From the NCBI RefSeq assembly GCF_053078305.1, contig NZ_CP166879.1: a DNA stretch of 64,000 nt. One strand, given 5' to 3'. Below the pieces are notes generated by a model, which did not search any database, was not told the origin of the DNA, and saw only the letters and a list, made by a program, of their open reading frames with translations. Position numbers and translations under genes: made by a program. Shown here piece by piece: positions 6,632-60,029 of the stretch (the first letter of the stretch is position 1; every line of letters starts with the position of its first letter).

Positions 6632-6800
6632 AATGGCAGCCTCTTGGTTGAGTATTAATAACTCACCACCAAGGTTTTCCACGACCATAAGGGTGGTGAG
6701 ACGTACAGGGGTGGAAATACCGGTCAACCAAGAATCCGGCCAGCCTTGCGGCTGCCCTGCACGCCCCACCATAATCTGAATGTGGCTGTGCATTACGCAT

Positions 6801-6877
6801 AAAAAAACCGCCTGAGCGCGGTTATGCGCTTGATTGAATTCCGGGTTTCCACGCCCGGCACCCGCTTTATGAGGTGC
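6801..6877 (-). ncRNA. C4 / IsrK / P4-CI-like small RNA element in the rha leader
   Basis: 77 nt: hairpin GCACC-TCATAAAGCG-GGTGC, hairpin CCGGG-CGTGGAAA-CCCGG, terminator AACCGC-GCTCAG-GCGGTT plus T7. Loop 2 is complementary to TTTCCAC at 6717-6711. A homologous element lies at 35806-35883. Confidence 0.55.
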
Positions 6878-7119: not shown

Positions 7120-7176
7120 AAAAAGGGTGGCAGAGCAGTCACGGAGTAGAACTGATGCCACCAAAGACTACACATG
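7120..7176 (-). ncRNA. dicF: DicF-like sRNA
   Basis: Minus strand reads ...GGTGGCATCAGTTCTACTCCGTGACTGCTCTGCCACCCTTTTT, very close to recalled E. coli DicF including the terminator. Lies downstream of a ydfA-like gene as in Qin. Confidence 0.65.
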
Positions 7177-14174: not shown

Positions 14175-14385
14175 AAACGGTTTGCGGGAAAAGGAGAGTT
14201 AAGTAGAATTGCAGCGGGTGCTTGAGGCTATCTGTCTCAGGCATGAACACCAAAAGGCAGATAGAGAAAAGCCCCAGTTAACATTACGCGTCCGGCAAGA
14301 CGCTTAACATTAATCTGAGGCTCAATCTGTGAACGGCAAATCTAGGTTAGCCTCTTACGCGCCGAAAGGCAAGGAGAAGCAGGCT

Positions 14386-14541
14386 ATGAAGCAGCAAAAG
14401 GCGATGTTAGTCGCCCTGATCGTCATCTGTATTACCGTCATTGTGACGGCACTGGTAACGAGGAAAGACCTCTGCGAGGTACGAATCCGAACCGGCCAGA
14501 CGGAGGTCGCTGTCTTCACAGCTTACGAACCTGAGGAGTAA
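14386..14541 (+). CDS. hokD: Hok/Gef-family type I toxin (HokD/RelF-like)
   Basis: MKQQKAMLVALIVICITVIVTALVTRKDLCEVRIRTGQTEVAVFTAYEPEE is near-identical to recalled RelF/HokD. The sok-type antisense RNA was not located. Confidence 0.75.
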   Translation: MKQQKAMLVALIVICITVIVTALVTRKDLCEVRIRTGQTEVAVFTAYEPEE

Positions 14542-18658: not shown

Positions 18659-19717
18659 ATGCTTAATACTGTAAAAATATCCAGTTGTGAGTTAATCAAC
18701 GCCGACTGCCTGGCATTTATCCGGTCGTTACCCGAAAATTCTGTTGACCTGATAGTCACGGACCCGCCGTACTTTAAAGTGAAGCCTGAGGGCTGGGATA
18801 ACCAGTGGAAGGGCGACGATGATTACCTGAAGTGGCTGGACCAGTGTCTTGCGCAGTTCTGGCGGGTGCTGAAACCTGCCGGAAGTCTTTACCTGTTCTG
18901 TGGCCATCGCCTGGCATCTGATATCGAAATCATGATGCGTGAACGCTTCAGTGTGCTGAACCATATTATCTGGGCAAAGCCGTCCGGACGCTGGAACGGG
19001 TGCAACAAGGAAAGCCTGAGGGCGTATTTCCCCGCCACAGAGCGCATTCTGTTCGCGGAACATTATCAGGGGCCGTATCGTCCGAAAGATGCCGGGTATG
19101 AGGCGAAGGGCAGGGCACTGAAACAGCATGTGATGGCCCCGCTGATTGCTTACTTTCGTGATGCGCGTGCTGCCCTGGGGATAACGGCAAAACAGATTGT
19201 GGATGCCACAGGAAAGAAAAACATGGTGTCGCACTGGTTCAGTGCCAGTCAGTGGCAGCTACCGAACGAAAGCGATTATCTGAAATTACAGGCGCTGTTT
19301 GCCCGGGTGGCAGAAGAGAAGCATCAGCGCGGTGAACTGGAAAAGCCCCACCACCAGCTGCTGGAGACGTATACTTCACTGAACCGGCAGTATGCGGAAC
19401 TGCAGAGTGAATATAAGCATCTGCGGCGGTATTTTGGCGTGACGGCGCAGGTGCCGTACACCGATGTGTGGACGCATAAACCGGTGCAGTACTATCCCGG
19501 GAAACATCCGTGCGAAAAACCGGCAGAAATGCTGCAGCAGATAATCAGCGCGAGCAGTCGTCCGGGGGACCTGGTTGCAGATTTTTTCATGGGGTCGGGT
19601 TCGACAGTCAAAGCCGCGATGGCGCTGGGGCGTCGTGCAACTGGCGTTGAGCTGGAGACTGAACGTTTTGAGCAGACGGTCAGGGAAGTACAGGATTTAG
19701 CCAGTCAGAACGGATGA
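18659..19717 (+). CDS. Beta-class N6/N4 DNA methyltransferase
   Basis: DPPY motif near the N-terminus (LIVTDPPYF) and FMGSGST near the C-terminus. Same position as the methylase upstream of tRNAs in Stx-type phages. Confidence 0.8.
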   Translation: MLNTVKISSCELINADCLAFIRSLPENSVDLIVTDPPYFKVKPEGWDNQWKGDDDYLKWLDQCLAQFWRVLKPAGSLYLFCGHRLASDIEIMMRERFSVLNHIIWAKPSGRWNGCNKESLRAYFPATERILFAEHYQGPYRPKDAGYEAKGRALKQHVMAPLIAYFRDARAALGITAKQIVDATGKKNMVSHWFSASQWQLPNESDYLKLQALFARVAEEKHQRGELEKPHHQLLETYTSLNRQYAELQSEYKHLRRYFGVTAQVPYTDVWTHKPVQYYPGKHPCEKPAEMLQQIISASSRPGDLVADFFMGSGSTVKAAMALGRRATGVELETERFEQTVREVQDLASQNG

Positions 19718-19757: not shown

Positions 19758-19833
19758 GGCCCTTTAGCTCAGTGGTGAGAGCGAGCGACTCATAATCGCC
19801 AGGTCGCTGGTTCAAATCCAGCAAGGGCCACCA
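19758..19833 (+). tRNA. ileZ: tRNA with CAU anticodon (Ile2/Met, ileZ-like)
   Basis: Cloverleaf folded by hand: acceptor GGCCCTT/AAGGGCC, anticodon loop CTCATAA, T-loop TTCAAAT, encoded CCA. Confidence 0.85.
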
Positions 19834-19842
19834 TATCACATA

Positions 19843-19919
19843 CCGCCATTAGCTCATCGGGACAGAGCGTCAGCCTTCGAAGCTGGTTGCGCGGGGTTCG
19901 AGTCCTCGATGGCGGTCCA
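19843..19919 (+). tRNA. argN: tRNA-Arg (UCG)
   Basis: Acceptor CCGCCAT/ATGGCGG, anticodon loop CTTCGAA, T-loop TTCGAGT, encoded CCA. Confidence 0.8.
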
Positions 19920-19932
19920 TTATCGGTATTCA

Positions 19933-20009
19933 GCGTTGTTAGCTCAGCCGGACAGAGCAATTGCCTTCTAAGCAATCGGTCACTGGTTCGAATCCAGTAC
20001 AACGCGCCA
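19933..20009 (+). tRNA. argO: tRNA-Arg (UCU)
   Basis: Acceptor GCGTTGT/ACAACGC, anticodon loop CTTCTAA, T-loop TTCGAAT, encoded CCA. Confidence 0.85.
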
Positions 20010-20771: not shown

Positions 20772-21072
20772 CCGGGTATCAGTCATGCCCCGAAAATTTT
20801 AAATGTCTCACAATTCAGACGGTTGACAGTTGTCTGTTTTGCGGGGAGTTTGTTAAAAGAAACTGGCATGGTGAATCCCCCTGAGCGGAGGGGCGACTGG
20901 TGCATTAGGTGTTATCTTTGATACCTAGGAAAGTGAACGCGCGGGTTTGGTTGCACCGGGCTGAACTCACCGGGAGGCACCCGGCATCATGCGCATGATG
21001 ATACAGATACGCGGCTTTAGCCCCTCTCCGGAGGGGCTTTTATATGAATTTTGTAAGATATGAGTAAACTAA

Positions 21073-21661: not shown

Positions 21662-23629
21662 ATGGCATTTAAACACTACGATGTGGTCAGGGCGGCGTCG
21701 CCGTCAGACCTTGCGGAGCGACTGACTCAAAAACTGAAGGAGGGGTGGCAGCCATTTGGCAGTCCTGTCGCCATCACGCCTTATACCCTGATGCAGGCCA
21801 TTGCGGCGGAAGGTGATGTCACCACACCTGTGCTGGTGAAGCCGTCGGATGGAGAAGGCACAGTTATCAGCACCACCAGCGAACCGGAGTATTACTTTGT
21901 TGTTGTTCTGGCGGGGCAGTCAAACAGCATGGCATATGGTGAAGGCCTTCCGCTGCCGGAGACATATGACCGTCCGGACCCGCGTATTAAGCAGCTGGCG
22001 CGCCGCAGTACGGTGACACCGGGCGGTGCCGCCTGTAAGTATAACGACATTATTCCGGCGGACCATTGTCTGCATGATGTGCAGGACATGAGCCGTCTTA
22101 ACCATCCGAAAGCGAACCTGTCAAAGGGGCAGTACGGAACCGTGGGGCAGGGGCTGCATATCGGCAAAAAACTGCTGCCGTTTATACCGGCGAATGCGGG
22201 CATTCTGCTGGTTCCGTGCTGCCGTGGTGCTTCGGCATTCACAACGGGTGCAGACGGCACATACAGCGAATCAGCCGGTGCATCGGAAAATTCACTGCGC
22301 TGGGGTGTGGGTAAGCCGCTGTATCAGGATTTGGTGAGCCGGACTAAAGCCGCACTGGCGAAGAACCCGAAAAACCGTCTGCTTGCGGTGGTGTGGATGC
22401 AGGGAGAAGGTGATGCGGCAGTGGGGACGCATGCGCAGCATCCGGGGCTGTTTAGTGCGATGGTGAATCAGTTCAGAACGGAGCTTGCCGGTCTGGCATC
22501 ACAGAGCACAGGAGGCAGCGCATCAGCGGTACCGTGGATTTGCGGGGACACAACGTATTTCTGGAAGCAGCGTCATGCGGAAGGGTATGCATCAGTATAC
22601 GGAGGGTATAAGGGTAAGGAGTCGCAGAACATTTTCTTTGTACCGTTAATGACGGATGAGAATGGTGCGAATGTGCAGACCAATGACCCGGCAGAAGACC
22701 CGGACCTGGAAGCCGTCGGTTATTACGGTTCAAAGTGGCGTAATGACCAGAAGACCTGGACATCTGTGGACAGGGCAAGCCATTTCAGTTCATGGGCACG
22801 CCGTGGGATTATTTCCGACCGTCTGGCAACGGCGATTCTGGTGCATGCCGGGAGAACTGCTGAATTCATTACCGGAAAACAGCCTGATACGGTGAAGCCC
22901 ACCGGACCTTCCGGTGAAGGCCCGGAGAGAGAGCCGGAAGCCCCGGTCAGTAACCGAACCCTGATGAGTCTGCTGGCGTCCGGTGAAGACCTGGCATCAC
23001 AGGGCTGGCGCTATTATCACAAACCGGCGAGCGGAGACAATGTTGATAAAAACATCGCTGAGGCTGTGGTCAGTGATGAGGGTGCCACCGGTGGTAAGGC
23101 CCTGCAACTGAACAAACCGGAAAGCCACATCTGGTTTCTGGAGCATGATGCCGCCGGGCAGGGGGCAGAGTTGCTGAAGAAAGGCGGACGTGTGAGCGTA
23201 CGGTTTAAGGTGCCGGGCTCACTGGTGCCGAATCAGTTTGCCCTGGGTATTTACTGGCAGTTGTCGTCCCTGCCGGAGGGAGTGACGCTGGCAGAGGAAG
23301 GCAACGACATGCTGATGTCCTTCTTCCTGCAGACGGATGCGACGAACCTGAACGCGATGTACCACAAGAAGCAGAATGCGAAGCTGGATACGTTCGGGGT
23401 CTTTGATAACGGATGGCACACACTGGCTTTTGAGTTTGCCGGAAACAACAGCATTCAGGTGACGCCGGTACTGGATGAGAAACGGGGTACACCGTTCACA
23501 CTGGTGAAATCTCCGGCATCAGGGGCGGCGGACAAACTGCAACTGACAGGCATATCAAAGGCGGCGACATATACGTTGCTGATTGACAGTGTGAAGGTGG
23601 AAGTGAACAACGCGGACGCCGCGGCATGA
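21662..23629 (+). CDS. nanS-p: Prophage sialate O-acetylesterase NanS-p (DUF1737 + SGNH/SASA esterase + C-terminal lectin-like domain)
   Basis: MAFKHYDVVRAASPSDLAE... N-terminus and the VLAGQSNSMAYGEG esterase motif, as recalled for EHEC prophage NanS-p. Lies in the post-stx position. Confidence 0.75.
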   Translation: MAFKHYDVVRAASPSDLAERLTQKLKEGWQPFGSPVAITPYTLMQAIAAEGDVTTPVLVKPSDGEGTVISTTSEPEYYFVVVLAGQSNSMAYGEGLPLPETYDRPDPRIKQLARRSTVTPGGAACKYNDIIPADHCLHDVQDMSRLNHPKANLSKGQYGTVGQGLHIGKKLLPFIPANAGILLVPCCRGASAFTTGADGTYSESAGASENSLRWGVGKPLYQDLVSRTKAALAKNPKNRLLAVVWMQGEGDAAVGTHAQHPGLFSAMVNQFRTELAGLASQSTGGSASAVPWICGDTTYFWKQRHAEGYASVYGGYKGKESQNIFFVPLMTDENGANVQTNDPAEDPDLEAVGYYGSKWRNDQKTWTSVDRASHFSSWARRGIISDRLATAILVHAGRTAEFITGKQPDTVKPTGPSGEGPEREPEAPVSNRTLMSLLASGEDLASQGWRYYHKPASGDNVDKNIAEAVVSDEGATGGKALQLNKPESHIWFLEHDAAGQGAELLKKGGRVSVRFKVPGSLVPNQFALGIYWQLSSLPEGVTLAEEGNDMLMSFFLQTDATNLNAMYHKKQNAKLDTFGVFDNGWHTLAFEFAGNNSIQVTPVLDEKRGTPFTLVKSPASGAADKLQLTGISKAATYTLLIDSVKVEVNNADAAA

Positions 23630-23768
23630 TAAAAAGAGCCGCCAGCGGCAGGAATGGAAGCTGGCGGAGGTAATCCCAATGGAGAATGTAAAGAAAAGAT
23701 GCTTTCGTACATCGGTTGTTTTTTTAAATGAAAACAGTTCTCATTGTCAACCATAACGGTAAGAAATT

Positions 23769-23948
23769 ATGACATTTATTCATCAGGTGATGCTGTACTT
23801 CTGTACGGCGGTCTGTGTGCTGTATCTTCTTTCGGGTGGGTACAGGGCCGTGCGCGATTTCTGGCGCAGGCAGATTGATAAAAGGGCCGCAGAGAAAATC
23901 AGCGCCAGTCAGTCAGCCGGAAGCAAACCCGAAGAGCCGCTCATTTAG
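23769..23948 (+). CDS. 59-aa membrane protein
   Basis: MTFIHQVMLYFCTAVCVLYLLSGGY..., below the ORF-track cutoff. Read directly from the DNA. Confidence 0.4.
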   Translation: MTFIHQVMLYFCTAVCVLYLLSGGYRAVRDFWRRQIDKRAAEKISASQSAGSKPEEPLI

Positions 23949-23988
23949 CTGCAACTTTCTTAACAACCATTTTCAACGAGAAAATCCC

Positions 23989-24234
23989 ATGTCAGAAATC
24001 ACATCCCTGGTCACTGCAGAGGCAGTGAAGGAAGTCCTGCGCTCTGAAGAAGTCCTGAGCGCACTGAAACAGAAACTCCGCCAGAACCTTGAGTCGCGTC
24101 TTGATGCAGAAGTGGATGCCATTCTGGATGAACTGCTGGGCGCACCGGCTGTTCCGGAGCCGGAAGGCATTGCGGGTGACGGGAGTGCTTCAGATGGCGG
24201 TGAACCCACACCCGACAGCGACATGATGATGTAA
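23989..24234 (+). CDS. Hypothetical acidic protein
   Basis: 81 aa starting [13 protein letters not shown]. Lies upstream of the holin. Confidence 0.45.
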
Positions 24235-24310
24235 GCATGCGCAAGGGACCATCGGTGTGTGCCGGTGGTCTTTATATTGTTGTGAGCTTCCGGATTGCGG
24301 GAGACGGGGT

Positions 24311-24526
24311 ATGTACCAGATGGAAAAAATCACAACAGGTGTGTCATACACCACGTCAGCGGTGGGAACGGGCTACTGGTTCCTGCAGTTGCTGGACAGG
24401 GTTTCCCCGTCTCAGTGGGCGGCAATAGGCGTGCTGGGGAGTCTGCTGTTTGGTCTGCTGACATACCTGACGAACCTGTATTTTAAAATCAGAGAAGACC
24501 GGCGTAAGGCGGCCCGGGGAGAGTAA
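24311..24526 (+). CDS. S: Holin S (dual-start motif)
   Basis: [29 protein letters not shown]...[25 protein letters not shown] matches recalled Stx-phage holin. Met codons at 24311 and 24320. Confidence 0.8.
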
Positions 24527-24530
24527 AGCG

Positions 24531-25517
24531 ATGAATAACAAATATGAACTGGTTGTAAAAGGGATAAATCATTACCCGGATAAGATAACTGTTACGGTGG
24601 CACTGGAAATTGCCGGTCAGCCGTCGTTGTTGTCGCCATATGTGGCGATTAGTCTTGACCGTACTGAAGGTGCCACGCTGGAATTTTACGAAGCTGAGGC
24701 GAAAAAACAGGCGAAGCAGTTTTTCATGGATGCGGCTCTCGGATTACGCGAAGGGACTGCGCGATGTGGCTTTCAGAATATTTCTTCATGGACAATGCCG
24801 GAAAAAATCGCCACTTACCCGGGGCGTGAAAAGGTCAACGAACCGGTAAAAAATGCGCCTGATGATGTGCAGAGCGCGATGGTTAATGTGGAGCTTCCGG
24901 CACGTGTGACACCAGGAGTGAAAGTCGGGGAAGATTCTCGTCTTGTGCTGACCAAAAGAATAGGCAGCGTGGTCAGTGTTCATATTGATCATGAGGAAGT
25001 TCTGTCGGTTATGTACAGGGAAGACTACGATCCGAAAACAACATTCAGCGACTATGAAGCGAGAGCAAAGGAGTATGCCTTGTCGGTATTTGCTGCGGTA
25101 CGTGGCGAGGACTGTCGTAAAAACGGGCATGAAAGTGATTTTACTGTGCCTGTGTCGGACAAAAACCAGGAACGGGAGTGTAACCGGCCATCCTTTGTTG
25201 TATCCGGTGATGACGGGAAAATCACCATATCAGAAAATGGAAAAGTAACACCGCCATCGCACCAGCACAGTGAGACGCTCATTGAATTTGCCATTGATTA
25301 CCTGAAGAACAATAAAAAACAGGGGCTGATGAAGCGCATTGGTCGCTGCATGGGATATCTGCAGCTGGCGGCAGAGATTGAAGCACTTGCCAGTGGTGCA
25401 GACAGGGATGCTGCGGTGCGGGAGGCTCTTCTTTGTGATTTCAATACGCCACCCTTTAAGAAAGAGCCTGATGGCTGGATCCAGCCGGGGCTGACTTATC
25501 TTAAAGTGCGTATTTAG
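24531..25517 (+). CDS. Unknown 328-aa protein inserted between holin and endolysin
   Basis: Tight spacing (4 nt after the holin stop). No recognisable motif. Confidence 0.6.
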   Translation: MNNKYELVVKGINHYPDKITVTVALEIAGQPSLLSPYVAISLDRTEGATLEFYEAEAKKQAKQFFMDAALGLREGTARCGFQNISSWTMPEKIATYPGREKVNEPVKNAPDDVQSAMVNVELPARVTPGVKVGEDSRLVLTKRIGSVVSVHIDHEEVLSVMYREDYDPKTTFSDYEARAKEYALSVFAAVRGEDCRKNGHESDFTVPVSDKNQERECNRPSFVVSGDDGKITISENGKVTPPSHQHSETLIEFAIDYLKNNKKQGLMKRIGRCMGYLQLAAEIEALASGADRDAAVREALLCDFNTPPFKKEPDGWIQPGLTYLKVRI

Positions 25518-25553
25518 TGGGCCAGGGACAGCGGCTGAATATTTAATATATAC

Positions 25554-26087
25554 ATGAACGCAAAAATCAAATACGGCCTGTCAGCTGCTGTTCTGGCGCT
25601 GATTGCCGCAGGTGCGCCTGCGCCTGAAATCCTCGACCAGTTTCTTGACGAAAAAGAAGGTAACCACAGCACGGCATACCGTGATGGTGCGGGTATCTGG
25701 ACCATCTGCCGTGGTGCCACCCGGGTGGATGGTAAGCCTGTCGTCCCTGGCATGAAGCTGTCGAAGGAAAAATGCGACCAGGTTAACGCCATTGAACGTG
25801 ATAAGGCGCTGGCATGGGTGGCGAAAAACATCAAAGTGCCACTGACTGAACCCCAGAAAGCGGGGATCGCGTCATTCTGTCCTTACAACATTGGCCCAGG
25901 TAAGTGTTTCCCGTCGACGTTTTATAAACGAATTAATGCAGGCGATCGCAGGGGAGCGTGTGAGGCGATTCGCTGGTGGATTAAGGACGGTGGCAGAGAC
26001 TGCCGTATTCGCTCAAATAACTGTTACGGTCAGGTATCCCGGAGAGACCAGGAGAGCGCGCTGGCGTGCTGGGAAATCGACAGATAA
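25554..26087 (+). CDS. R: SAR-type endolysin (GH24 lysozyme)
   Basis: N-terminal Gly/Ala-rich SAR segment GLSAAVLALIAAGAPA, then the catalytic region EGNHSTAYRDGAGIWTICRG. Confidence 0.85.
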   Translation: MNAKIKYGLSAAVLALIAAGAPAPEILDQFLDEKEGNHSTAYRDGAGIWTICRGATRVDGKPVVPGMKLSKEKCDQVNAIERDKALAWVAKNIKVPLTEPQKAGIASFCPYNIGPGKCFPSTFYKRINAGDRRGACEAIRWWIKDGGRDCRIRSNNCYGQVSRRDQESALACWEIDR

Positions 26088-26243
26088 GCAGAATATTTTG
26101 CTGAAAAATGAGGTTTGCTTACATGGACGGATAACACGAAATCCTGCGAACTGGCAAAATGTAAGTGAATAAAAGTAAAAACCCCGTTTGTTGGCAGCAA
26201 GCGGGGTTTTGTGTTTCTGACCTTGGATAAGGCAAGGGAGAAC

Positions 26244-26426
26244 ATGGAAAAGTATAAACGAATTCTGTTGAGGTTGACTATGAAAAACGGCCTTGAACTG
26301 AAAGCGCCAGTAACTGATGACATCAGCAGAGCACTGGCTTTTGCTATTAAGTGGGTGGCGGTCGGTATCGCTGTGTCTCCGATGCTGTATGGGCTGGCAA
26401 AACTGGTCATTGCGTTGAAATCGTGA
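26244..26426 (+). CDS. 60-aa membrane protein
   Basis: Starts after terminator 26179-26212 with RBS AGGGAG. C-terminal TM segment WVAVGIAVSPMLYGLAKLVIAL. Confidence 0.45.
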   Translation: MEKYKRILLRLTMKNGLELKAPVTDDISRALAFAIKWVAVGIAVSPMLYGLAKLVIALKS

Positions 26427-26440
26427 AGGGAGGATTAAAC

Positions 26441-26572
26441 ATGTCAGACAAACTCATAATGCTGGCGAAGATCCTCTGTGTAATCGTCGGCATTTCATTT
26501 TCACTAATGCTGGTTGCTATTTGCTTTTCCACTGCCTGGCGCGTCTTAACTCTGTCAGGGCTGGTGGGGTGA
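26441..26572 (+). CDS. 43-aa membrane protein
   Basis: RBS GAAGGGAGG. Sequence MSDKLIMLAKILCVIVGISFSLMLVAICFSTAW... Confidence 0.45.
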   Translation: MSDKLIMLAKILCVIVGISFSLMLVAICFSTAWRVLTLSGLVG

Positions 26573-26579
26573 CAGAAAC

Positions 26580-27515
26580 ATGAAATGTGTACTGTATTCC
26601 GGTGACTGTCTTGATGTTATGCCTTCATTACTACCGGGAAGTGTTGACCTGGTTTTATGTGACCCGCCGTATGGAACCATTAAAGGGCTTACACTCCGTA
26701 CATGGGATAAGAGTACGACAGCATGGGACGATGCCTTAAATCCTGAAGATATTTTCACACAGTGCGAACGACTGCTGAGGGTGGGCGGTGTGCTGGTCAT
26801 GTTCAGCCAGGAGCCGCATACAAGCACGATGATTACTCTGGCGGATAAAAACCTGCCGTTTTTATATCGTATGGTGTGGAAGAAGGAGCATTTCCCCAAC
26901 CCGCTTTCAGTAAAAAAAGCACCTGTATCTTTATTCGAGGATATCGTTGTTTTCCGGAAAAAATATGACAGTGAGAAAAACCACCCGCTGAGGGAGTACG
27001 CCCGAAATATCCTTTCTTTCATTGGCCACAGGACAGACAAGGAAGTTAACAAAACACTGGGGCACTGTCGGGCAGAGCATTTTTTTCGCGTGAACACAGT
27101 CCAGTTTTCCCTCTGCTCACAGGATACGTACAACGAGTTAATTAAACGCTTTGGTATCGACCGTATGCCGGGTTTCATGACATATGAAGAAATGTGCAAA
27201 GTGAATTCCGGTTACGGCACTGTGGTTTTTAATCTCCCTCAGGGGAAAAAATACCGCGCAAATATTCTGGAGTACGCGCGGGAGCGGGAGCGATGGCATC
27301 CGACCCAGAAGCCAGTTGCATTACTGGAAGAGCTGATTCAGACGTACAGCAACCCTGGCGACAGGGTACTGGATTTTACTATGGGGAGTGGTTCAACAGG
27401 TGTTGCATGTATCCGGACGGGGAGACGGTTTACCGGAATAGAAAAGGATGACCGGTATTTCGCTGTTGCAAAAAAACGTCTGGAAAAAGAAAACAGTGAA
27501 ATGGTGGTGATATGA
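26580..27515 (+). CDS. Second beta-class N6/N4 DNA methyltransferase
   Basis: LVLCDPPYG near the N-terminus, then HPTQKP and FTMGSGSTG near the C-terminus. Overlaps the Rz start by 4 nt. Confidence 0.8.
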
Positions 27516-27979
27516 ACCGTGTTCTGTGTGTGGTGATTATTGTCCTGCTGGTGGCCTGTGGTGCGCTTAGTCTGGGGCTGAATCATTACCGCGATAACGC
27601 CATCACCTACAAAGCGCAGCGCGATAAAAAAGCCAGAGAGCTGGAGCTGGCAAACGCAACCATTACTGATATGCAGCAGCGCCAGCGCGATGTTGCTGCG
27701 CTCGATGCTAAATACTCGAGGGAATTAGCCGATGCGAGAGCTGAAAATGAAACTCTGCGTGCTGATGTTGCCGCTGGTCGTAAGCGCCTGCGGGTTAAAG
27801 CCACCTGTCCAGGCTCCGTGCGTGAAGCCCCCACCACCTCCGGCGTGGATAATGCAACCGGCCCCCGACTGGCAGACACCGCTGAACGGGATTATTTCAT
27901 CCTCAGAGAACGGTTGATGACAATGCAGAAGCAGCTGGAAGGGGCGAAGGAATATATCCGCACTCAGTGTATTAACTAG
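27512..27979 (+). CDS. Rz: i-spanin Rz
   Basis: N-terminal TM segment followed by a coiled-coil. Resembles recalled lambdoid Rz. Confidence 0.8.
27747..27917 (+). CDS. Rz1: o-spanin Rz1 (embedded, +1 frame)
   Basis: [15 protein letters not shown] lipobox and a proline-rich body, fully embedded in Rz. Confidence 0.7.
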
Positions 27980-28002
27980 TATTTTTGTTATCCGGAGAAT
28001 GC

Positions 28003-28227
28003 ATGAAGAAATTACTGGTAACCGTAAAGCCTTTTCAGGGAACAATTCCGTTCCGTATTTTGCAGTGTGGTCGTGTTCTTGTTGAAGGTTCGTTCAGTGG
28101 TAAATGTACGCAATTACACTCCCGGACCTTTCAGGTGAATGCCACGAATGAAGAGCTAACCGTTGAGTGTACGATGAATGCAGCTAAATGCCGCATGGTA
28201 TCGGCTGCATTACAGCCAGTGTGTTGA
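28003..28227 (+). CDS. Hypothetical protein (bor position)
   Basis: 74-aa ORF after the spanins. It is not Bor-like. Confidence 0.35.
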   Translation: MKKLLVTVKPFQGTIPFRILQCGRVLVEGSFSGKCTQLHSRTFQVNATNEELTVECTMNAAKCRMVSAALQPVC

Positions 28228-28456
28228 GCGACCTTATTATCCATGCGCGGTATTGTCGCCGTATTCCTGCATTAACAGAGACCGCAGCCCGACAGGGAGA
28301 CTCCTCTGCGCGAGTGTGCGGGGATAATCAAAAACGATACACACCGGGGTTTACCGCGTTAACGGAGCGCGGCGTTGTCCCCTCATGGTCGCTGGTCCGG
28401 TGCGATGGTGGAAGAAACTGGATTTTGTTGCAACTGATAATCATTATCATTTTCTC

Positions 28457-28640
28457 GGGTCCTTTCCGGCATATGGACCCGTTACGGGGCGGCGACCTCG
28501 CGGATTTTCACTATTTATGAAAATTTTCCGGGATCCATGTCCGGTTTCTCTGCAAGTTAACCATATGAAAAATATAAAAACATGCTTTCCATGAACCGGA
28601 CATGCGCAAAAAATAGACACTAAAACCGGACATGACCGGT
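28457..28640 (+). promoter_or_regulatory. Helper cos site (cosQ side, cosN, cosB)
   Basis: GGGTCCTTTCCGG...CCGTTACG then GGGCGGCGACCT (28487-28498, the lambda cohesive-end sequence as recalled), then CGCGG..TATTTATGAAAATTTTCCGG. Three AACCGGACATG repeats at 28536-46 (inverted), 28594-604 and 28624-34. Confidence 0.85.
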
Positions 28641-35805: not shown

Positions 35806-35883
35806 GCACCTCATAAAACGGGTGCCGGGATTGGCGTCCTGGGCAAAACTGAAGCGCATAACACGCGCCCCGCGTGTTTTTTT
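35806..35883 (+). ncRNA. C4 / IsrK / P4-CI-like small RNA element in the island leader
   Basis: GCACC-TCATAAAACG-GGTGC; CCGGGA-TTGGCG-TCCTGG; ACACGCG-CCC-CGCGTGT plus T7. Loop 2 is complementary to ACGCCAA at 35963-69. Homologous to 6877-6801. Confidence 0.55.
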
Positions 35884-36045
35884 GTGCCGCATAGTCACAC
35901 CTTATCAATGGTGGGCTGTACGGGGGCGGAGCAATCCGCGCCGGTTTCTTCAGTGTCCGGTTACGCCAACCCTGTACAGTCCGCCACCAGCGAAATTGGC
36001 GTTTCCGGTGGCGGTTATCTTAACCACACTGAGGAGGCTGCCAAC

Positions 36046-59528: not shown

Positions 59529-60029
59529 ATGCCAAAACTCCCCGCACCACTGCGTAAAAAGCTGATTGCCCTTGTTCTGGCCGGTGCCGGGACGTTCACG
59601 ATTGCCACGCATTACACCGGTTACTGGGAAGGGAAAGAAAACTCCACGTATATCGATCCCACCGGTACACCCACCATCTGTTACGGCCATACCGGCCCGG
59701 ATGTGAAACCGGGTATGACCCTGACGGATGAAGAATGCCTGGAACTACTGGAAAAGGACATGAAATGGGCCTTTGCGGCCATTGATCGGCGTGTTCAGGT
59801 GCCGCTTACCCGTGGTCAGACGGTGGCGCTGGCTTCGTGGATCTTCTGGGCCGGTGAAACGAACTTTCGCAACTCCACGCTTCTGCGCCTGATCAATGCC
59901 GGGCAGATGCCCGCGTCCTGTAAGCAGTATATCCGCTGGATTTATTCAAAGGGGGTGAAGCTCCCCGGCCTTGAGGCCCGCCGTTCGGCGGATGAATGGT
60001 TATGTCGCTACGATTTGCCGAAAGTCTGA
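59529..60029 (+). CDS. Endolysin (GH24 lysozyme, SAR-like N-terminus)
   Basis: LIALVLAGAGTFTIA, then EGKENSTYIDPTGTPTICYGHT, the catalytic E-D-T pattern. Confidence 0.85.
   Translation: MPKLPAPLRKKLIALVLAGAGTFTIATHYTGYWEGKENSTYIDPTGTPTICYGHTGPDVKPGMTLTDEECLELLEKDMKWAFAAIDRRVQVPLTRGQTVALASWIFWAGETNFRNSTLLRLINAGQMPASCKQYIRWIYSKGVKLPGLEARRSADEWLCRYDLPKV

Follow-up and report, generated by a model that had tools for sequence, protein, structure and literature searches.

Exchangeable units between endolysin and Rz in a lambdoid Escherichia coli prophage, with a stand-alone DNA methyltransferase in a consistent place

The stretch considered here is the interval between the endolysin gene R and the spanin gene Rz (R-Rz) of a lambdoid Escherichia coli prophage, lying in a 64-kb piece of DNA that was analysed as a whole and is called the window below. 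This stretch is the variable middle of a lysis cassette composed of a pinholin, a SAR (signal-arrest-release) endolysin and spanins. It was found that the R-Rz junction is made of independently exchangeable units and not of one module: a terminator-like hairpin with the gene of a putative 60-aa membrane protein (pep1), the gene of a putative 43-aa membrane protein (pep2), and the gene of a 311-aa DNA methyltransferase (MT311). The methylase is an ordinary kind of phage cargo, a stand-alone methylase, in a consistent place. The exchangeable units, together with a methylase that would be made late through Q and would shield progeny DNA from restriction, make up our overall reading of the junction, which we consider moderately probable.

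Assortment of units at the R-Rz junction

Comparison with related prophages revealed three slots between R and Rz. The first holds either the hairpin and pep1 or another hairpin and the P22_AR_N antirepressor Ant, with the boundary just 5' of the hairpin; the second holds pep2, whose length is 43 aa when pep1 precedes it and 48-49 aa when Ant does; and the third, directly before Rz, is usually empty, or is occupied by MT311 or by an unrelated D12 Dam. The hairpin, pep1 and pep2 stand alone in L002. Ant and the 49-aa pep2 form (annotated there as 48-aa) are found in Sakai Sp6 and Sp10, and the same pair is followed by an MT311-type methylase in L004 and by the unrelated D12 Dam in L003. In four loci (L089, L180, L186 and L187) the methylase comes immediately after the endolysin gene, without peptides. 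The hairpin is combined with a small C-anchored peptide, the methylase and Rz in L092 and L183 (lambdoid) and L095 (P2-like), and in L178 the order is reversed, the hairpin and two peptides lying 3' of the methylase. The suggestion of a first-pass annotation that the R-Rz junction is a cargo hotspot was thus borne out, as related prophages swap pep1 and Ant, the pep2 forms, and MT311 and Dam. Ant, as found in Stx phages and in O157 Sakai prophages, takes the place that pep1 has in the first slot, with its own hairpin before it and the 48-/49-aa pep2 after it; it is a soluble regulator unrelated to pep1, indicating that the first slot is generic and not specific for membrane peptides.

The units also differed in frequency among 5426 complete E. 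coli genomes. The hairpin-pep1-pep2 unit was at least 80% complete in 1031 genomes and MT311 in 11, the peptide unit being about 100 times commoner, and a Dam-Rz junction was found in 4 and Rz-like DNA in 4226. The pep1/pep2 version is therefore complete in about 19% of these genomes, which places pep1 and pep2 among the commonest uncharacterised genes of E. coli lysis cassettes. Of 80 IMG/VR loci retrieved with pep1, two contained MT311, both from this genome, and in one complete genome that is closely related and has the methylase, the annotation marks pep1 as frameshifted. The genome counts, the IMG/VR loci and the frameshift in a methylase carrier indicate that peptides and methylase assort independently.

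This bears on an earlier proposal that the peptides and the methylase combine exclusion and anti-restriction functions. The recurrence of hairpin, small C-anchored peptide, methylase and Rz in L092, L183 and L095 agrees with the hairpin, both peptides and the methylase being one co-functioning module. Such a module is nevertheless very unlikely, because the peptide unit and the methylase occur at separate frequencies, the methylase is found without peptides in four loci and paired with Ant instead of pep1 in another, the order is reversed in L178, and pep1 is annotated as frameshifted in a methylase carrier. The exclusion function was likewise unsupported, as the peptides gave no PADLOC or Pfam match and no match to a defence family.

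The features of the cassette are listed below together with the second methylase of the prophage.

24311..24526, plus strand: class II (P21 S-type) holin, where the lysis cassette begins (PF04971, E = 9e-33)
24531-25517: 328-aa protein with N-terminal DUF1327, filling the holin-endolysin junction
25554..26087, plus strand: endolysin R, phage lysozyme (PF00959, E = 4.6e-25)
26088..26177, plus strand: conserved 3' untranslated region (UTR) of R, from alignments of pep1-type and Ant-type cassettes
26178..26218, plus strand: intrinsic-terminator-like hairpin and T-rich tail, from site scan, folding and covariation
26244..26426, plus strand: pep1, 60 aa, open reading frame (ORF), PHROG phrog_1115 (no assigned function)
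26441..26572, plus strand: pep2, 43 aa, ORF, PHROG phrog_4906 (no assigned function)
26580..27515, plus strand: MT311, 311-aa beta-class DNA methyltransferase (Pfam PF01555, E = 1.3e-32; PHROG phrog_67)
27502..27514, plus strand: junction motif TGGTGGTGATATG, a Shine-Dalgarno-like linker, from the junction table
27512..27979, plus strand: Rz (i-spanin; PF03245, E = 5.9e-48)
27732..27917, plus strand: Rz1 (o-spanin lipoprotein; PF06085, E = 5.2e-20), inside Rz in the +1 frame
18659..19717, plus strand: MT352, second beta-class methyltransferase of the prophage (PF01555, E = 5.8e-44)

The spacer between R and pep1 is 156 nt long and carries the hairpin at its 3' end. The genes that follow are tightly packed, with gaps of 14 nt (pep1-pep2) and 7 nt (pep2-MT311) and a 4-nt overlap between MT311 and Rz, in which the TGA of MT311 is contained in the ATGA at 27512-27515 that also carries the Rz start. 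The hairpin with its T-run, the two single-transmembrane ORFs with strong ribosome-binding sites and the methyltransferase-Rz overlap, all described in the first-pass annotation, are present in the sequence. The GC content was 0.45-0.50 over 26100-27450 compared with 0.52-0.53 in R and 0.50-0.57 in Rz, which is a small difference. The N-terminus of endolysin R is Gly/Ala-rich and weakly hydrophobic, of the SAR type, and Stx-phage endolysins of the same kind have been described as SAR endolysins (PMC8136144). A second cargo slot lies between holin and endolysin; its occupant in related prophages has roughly 110-210 aa compared with 328 aa here.

The window is identical in sequence to IMG/VR contig 2617271340_000015. 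Another contig of the same genome, 2617271340_000013 (L019), showed 99.5% identity to window positions 23243-28527 over 5.3 kb and then diverged; its copy spans holin to Rz, MT311 included. From this match it follows that two co-resident prophages have this cassette in common.

The hairpin and the small membrane proteins

The hairpin AAAACCCCGTTTGTTGGCAGCAAGCGGGGTTTT at 26178-26210 is followed by GTGTTTCTG. Its stem arms are AAAACCCCG...CGGGGTTTT, and with a T-rich tail on the 3' side and an A-tract on the 5' side it appears to be bidirectional. It was the best-ranked terminator-like site in 23.5-29.5 kb, with 15 pairs; 14 such sites were observed in this region compared with 5.8 ± 2.5 in shuffles, and folding prediction reproduced the expected hairpin. 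Covariation was assessed on ten hairpin variants from lambdoid and P2-like prophages, with 500 shuffles and slid controls. Across the variants 96.9% of cells were paired, three pairs were altered on both sides, and one pair occurred as 5 standard pair types. The observed covariation score was reached in none of the 500 shuffles, and the slid controls collapsed. Because pairing and covariation are kept in ten variants, the structure of the hairpin is regarded as being under selection. The hairpin precedes peptide genes also in L092, L095, L183 and L178, and the exchangeable pep1 unit begins with it. That it accompanies the two peptides 3' of the methylase in L178 implies that it belongs with the peptide unit.

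The R 3' UTR (26088-26177) is common to pep1-type and Ant-type cassettes up to GTGAATAAA at its 3' end, where the mosaic boundary falls. A GGATAACAC(G/A)AAAT-like motif of this region was found again in L092. For this UTR a long hairpin had been predicted, which was dropped because the alignment gave no covariation support. Rfam searches at the gathering threshold (whole window) and at E ≤ 5 (25900-26700) gave no RNA family in the R-pep1 spacer. The spacer or hairpin was also considered as a known prophage small RNA (sRNA), and this was rejected because the checked EcOnc sites fall outside the R-Rz interval by annotation. The sRNAs AgvB, AsxR and Pas are located between esterase and holin genes, and those of the EcOnc10-12 group lie 3' of Rz, as was directly checked for EcOnc11. 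The latter, whose site gives nearly the same signal as those of EcOnc10 and EcOnc12, was listed as a candidate for an sRNA bound by Hfq (Tree et al. 2014, Table S2). On the minus strand of the window, ∼330 nt 3' of Rz, positions 28307-28355 have 95% identity to the Sakai Sp10 EcOnc11 site.

An 8-codon mini-ORF (ATG TGT AGG GAG GCG TGT TCC CTG TGA) was observed after the hairpin at L092 3800-3830, and the same mini-ORF with two bases different at L178 4045-4075. In both loci the stop codon of the mini-ORF and the GTG that starts the peptide gene overlap, which might allow leader-peptide coupling.

The pep1 gene has the Shine-Dalgarno sequence AAGGGAG four bases before its ATG, and pep2 has a very strong one, GAAGGGAGGA. 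Each protein contains one hydrophobic stretch of 19 aa, with Kyte-Doolittle means of 1.9 (pep1) and 2.9 (pep2); in pep1 the N-terminal half is basic and the transmembrane helix is C-terminal. The pooled ratio of non-synonymous to synonymous polymorphism (pN/pS) of pep1 was 0.14, with 0.11 for the endolysin as comparison, and 18 of 30 variable sites were third codon positions; both alternative frames appeared non-coding. The low pN/pS and the third-position excess demonstrate that pep1 is a real gene under purifying selection. The pep1 family has members in Escherichia and Salmonella, and its cluster includes one from Shigella; protein matches of pep2 were found in E. coli only. No Pfam, NCBIfam or PADLOC match was obtained for either protein, and no known holin family profile matched. 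The Qin prophage of K-12 was considered as a carrier of homologous peptides and discarded, as there are none there and rrrQ adjoins rzpQ.

The coding signal of pep2 was weak, with a pN/pS of 0.58 and no third-position excess, and among the 80 IMG/VR loci pep2 was truncated in ∼9 and absent in 4. Together with the annotated frameshift of pep1, these values are what would be expected if pep2, and possibly pep1, were not a functional protein and the region served as a spacer or ribosome-loading sequence for Rz. We regard this as distinctly unlikely. The pN/pS of pep1 points the other way, and none of the 19 full-length pep2 alleles analysed has lost the 129-nt frame, although their synonymous divergence is about 17%. 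The N-terminal 26 aa of pep2 are nearly invariant, its divergent C-terminal haplotypes keep an S-x-A/G-W...L...G-L pattern, and its Shine-Dalgarno sequence is very strong. Moreover, unrelated small membrane ORFs (41-55 aa, C-terminal helix) occupy the same slots in L095, L183 and L178. In relatives without the methylase, pep2 lies 5-10 nt upstream of Rz.

The small size and hydrophobic C-terminus of pep1 would also suit a type I toxin-like protein, controlled by an antisense RNA of ∼75 nt that would run from a minus-strand site at 26280-26251 to the bidirectional hairpin. A promoter-like sequence TAGTCA-18-TATACT is present on the minus strand at 26251-26280, within the first pep1 codons; the A-tract 5' of the hairpin would permit a terminator reading on that strand too, and the antisense transcript would span the pep1 ribosome-binding site. 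Such control is highly improbable, since one promoter-like match has to be compared with 6.6 expected by chance in the region, and L178 and L095, in which the hairpin is followed by other types of peptide, lack the minus-strand site. It is further disfavoured by the lack of an Rfam match, by the position of the checked Sakai Hfq-bound candidate sRNAs, none of which lies in the R-Rz interval (the Sakai cassette being Ant-type), and by pep1 having no plus-strand promoter of its own.

Our best guess is that pep1 and pep2 are accessory membrane proteins of the lysis cassette, a role suggested by the way they consistently precede Rz where a cassette has SAR endolysin and pinholin. A stronger proposal is that the hairpin and the C-anchored peptides form an unrecognised regulatory component of lysis and are not cargo, the methylase-Rz pair being separately a dedicated, late anti-restriction mobile cassette. 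The occupation of the position before Rz by several unrelated peptide families in lambdoid and P2-like prophages would be consistent with a regulatory component, and we consider this double proposal possible, though rather unlikely. If it were true, the hairpin-peptide unit could set lysis timing or spanin dosage in cassettes of pinholin, SAR endolysin and spanins.

Family, position and mobility of the methylase

MT311 matched PF01555 with 114 bits (cut-off 26.7) over residues 22-299. Its motif IV, D28-P-P-Y31, precedes motif I, F266-T-M-G-S-G-S-T273, and both are (nearly) invariant in 28 homologs; the order of DPPY, a helical insertion that presumably serves as target-recognition domain (TRD), and FxGxG is that of the beta class. 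All invariant residues of the 28-sequence family alignment are retained in MT311. Its sequence matches in PDB were CcrM, DpnA/M1.HpyAVI and M.RsrI. The AlphaFold2 model had a pLDDT of 82.6, and its top Foldseek matches were M1.HpyAVI, M.BceJIV and CcrM, with a probability of 1.00 to these three as well as to RsrI and MboIIA. An N6-adenine target is favoured by prediction, because the motif is DPPY and not SPPY and because of the nearest structures. MT311 is thus classed, by its motifs and model, as a stand-alone beta-class DNA methyltransferase of the N6-adenine type with predicted activity. The dN/dS of 0.10-0.24 indicates purifying selection, with synonymous sites saturated between lineages.

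The solved N6-adenine enzymes M1.HpyAVI (5hfj), M.BceJIV (8urk), CcrM (6pbd), M.RsrI (1eg2) and M.MboIIA (1g60) have the same catalytic core fold as MT311 (Foldseek E of about 1e-15; target-normalised TM-score up to 0.83), and they have the HPTQKP and FxGxG region in common with it at about 20% identity. In contrast, a helical insertion of ∼100 residues (about 130-215) in MT311 is without counterpart in these structures, and none of the solved enzymes is encoded by a gene of a lysis cassette.

No cognate restriction endonuclease gene was found beside MT311, whose neighbours are pep2 and Rz, nor beside the methylase in 10 related loci mapped. The PADLOC matches were generic methyltransferase ones only.

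Homologs of MT311 with 55-100% identity are numerous, mostly in Salmonella enterica and fewer in E. coli. Eleven independent contexts of this enterobacterial clade were examined (the window, L004, L005, L089, L092, L095, L178, L180, L183, L186 and L187), and in all of them the methylase lies between the endolysin gene and a PF03245 Rz. Their backbones are lambdoid with various Q and holin families, P2-like in two cases, and a further myovirus-type prophage in one. The order in the two P2-like prophages is X - holin - K - methylase - Rz - R - S. Of four relatives with ≤54% identity that were examined, none lies between endolysin and Rz; they lie in an early region, next to a primase, past the lysis genes, and next to other methylases. 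IMG/VR relatives of the methylase were for the most part metagenomic phages with 40-52% identity. No relevant report of a methylase in a lysis cassette came up in literature searches, so that, as far as searched, the positional conservation of this clade is undescribed.

Compared with the other loci, the P2-like locus showed nucleotide similarity (73-80%) in the methylase and Rz only, indicating that the methylase-Rz pair travels as a block. A linker TGGTGGTGA-N-ATG was found to recur between peptide and methylase (L092, L095), between peptide and Rz (L178), between a remnant ORF and Dam (L003), and between MT311 and Rz in the window, where it is read in a different frame as the last MT311 codons (..E-M-V-V-I-stop). 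Judged by sequence, the linker inside the MT311 end looks like an insertion scar before an older peptide-Rz junction, and its recurrence suggests exchange at short conserved boundary sequences. The methylase clade would be a long-standing resident of the endolysin-Rz junction, and the methylase-Rz block may move among lambdoid, P2-like and other prophages by recombination in the widely shared Rz and the short junction linkers. One methylase clade is tied to this junction in three phage architectures, and Dam arrived there independently; the junction offers a testable example in which conserved lysis genes and short junction linkers would be landing pads for cargo exchange.

The second methylase, MT352 at 18659-19717, was described in the first-pass annotation as beta-class and different in sequence, and both points hold, with PF01555 matched and 25% identity to MT311. 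It lies downstream of Q, as judged from how a related locus is annotated, and three tRNA genes, located by Rfam at 19758-20006, follow it. Its 90% identity cluster includes 349-aa members, and M.EcoGII has 349 aa (PMC5778455). From the PF01555 match, the position downstream of Q and the 349-aa cluster members, MT352 probably belongs to the M.EcoGI/GII family.

Elsewhere in the window, Rfam matches were STnc100 (20837-21049), a sok-like antitoxin RNA (14216-14391), DicF (7125-7176) and two isrK + C4 pairs in opposite orientation (6689-6877 and 35806-35991). The two pairs may mean that the window holds more than a single prophage, or that it has been rearranged. A distant endolysin-like sequence with 32% identity to R (tblastn) at 59535-59954 suggests another phage-derived region near the window end.

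Expression timing, proposed role and known systems

A consensus-only scan of 23.5-29.5 kb gave no sigma-70-like promoter on the plus strand, which is a weak negative. No strong terminator was found 3' of the inserted genes, the sole strong hairpin being the upstream one at 26178-26210. The lack of a promoter match, the upstream terminator, and the packing and coupling to Rz suggest late, Q-dependent expression of the methylase. In the mechanism that we propose, the first unit is a structurally conserved intrinsic terminator and pep1, which would be anchored in the membrane by its C-terminal helix; the second is pep2, a putative membrane peptide normally abutting Rz; and the third, the real cargo, is the methylase, whose gene sits precisely at the pep2-Rz boundary, with its translation coupled to that of Rz. 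MT311 would not be expressed in the lysogen; its synthesis would be limited to late lytic growth, when the late operon is transcribed throughout by Q-modified RNA polymerase. It would then methylate replicated phage DNA before packaging, and the progeny would escape restriction in the next host.

Morons, as conceived by Hendrix and Juhala and exemplified by lambda bor and lom, have their own promoter and a downstream terminator and are expressed from the prophage. Lambdoid morons are extra genes between conserved late-operon neighbours, present or absent, as here. The interval had been called a moron at first, and the presence/absence polymorphism agrees with this; the other features do not, as a promoter was not found, the terminator is upstream and not downstream, and the genes are packed and coupled to Rz. 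A related possibility is that the prophage does express the methylase, as a true moron would, and that the enzyme reprograms host or prophage gene expression epigenetically during lysogeny, like M.EcoGIII or Dam. Stand-alone methylases can be regulators, and presence of the methylase is polymorphic among related prophages; for M.EcoGIII from an Stx phage, an effect on the expression of 1,951 genes is reported, as cited in PMC6602927. We give this possibility a low probability, in view of the missing plus-strand promoter-like site, the conserved terminator directly upstream, the translational coupling to a lysis gene, and the analogous M.EcoGI and M.EcoGII, which are not expressed in lysogens (PMC5778455).

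Phage stand-alone adenine methylases are thought to shield phage DNA from host restriction (PMC5778455). As a partner nuclease is absent, anti-restriction is the most likely role of MT311, plausible by analogy. The independent arrival of an unrelated Dam in the same slot implies that a late-expressed methylase may be favoured there. Alternatively, the junction may merely be the easiest place for cargo exchange, flanked as it is by two widely shared phage genes.

Several observations weigh against the late, Q-dependent, protective methylase. In P2-like hosts, which lack Q antitermination, the hairpin lies in the middle of a late operon that runs on into tail genes; it may therefore be an attenuator or an RNA-stability element and not a strict terminator. 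Methylation at the lysis stage might come too late for all packaged genomes. No MT311 homolog above 54% identity was found among the isolated phages of INPHARED, and the promoter negative is, as stated, a weak one.

If MT311 is expressed as proposed, at the lysis stage only, it would be invisible in methylomes of uninduced lysogens. Stand-alone phage methylases shape the host reach of temperate phages, Stx-converting relatives included.

Known small lysis regulators with one transmembrane helix are the antiholins S107 and S21-71, T4 RI and the Mu releasin gp25. Like these, pep1 and pep2 are small, have a single transmembrane helix and belong to lysis cassettes with SAR endolysins, whereas no sequence similarity between them was detected in Pfam and PHROG searches. 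Examples of late- or lytic-phase phage methylases with an anti-restriction role are P1 Dam, T4 Dam and Stx-phage Dam homologs such as M.EcoVT2Dam. These are of the alpha/D12 type and act on GATC, and so differ in class from MT311; a Dam-type D12 methylase unrelated to MT311 holds the identical slot before Rz in L003.

The closest parallel is provided by M.EcoGI and M.EcoGII of E. coli O104:H4, stand-alone adenine methyltransferases of the beta class that are encoded on prophages, silent in the lysogen and harmful under constitutive expression (PMC5778455). MT311 resembles them in the DPPY-TRD-FxGxG order, in its lambdoid prophage setting and in the absence of a partner nuclease, and for them expression is presumed on induction. 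Non-specific activity is not to be assumed for MT311. It differs from the M.EcoGI/GII type in being shorter (311 compared with 349-352 aa), in its central insertion, and in its place: MT311 lies within the lysis cassette, whereas MT352, probably of the M.EcoGI/GII type, lies downstream of Q.

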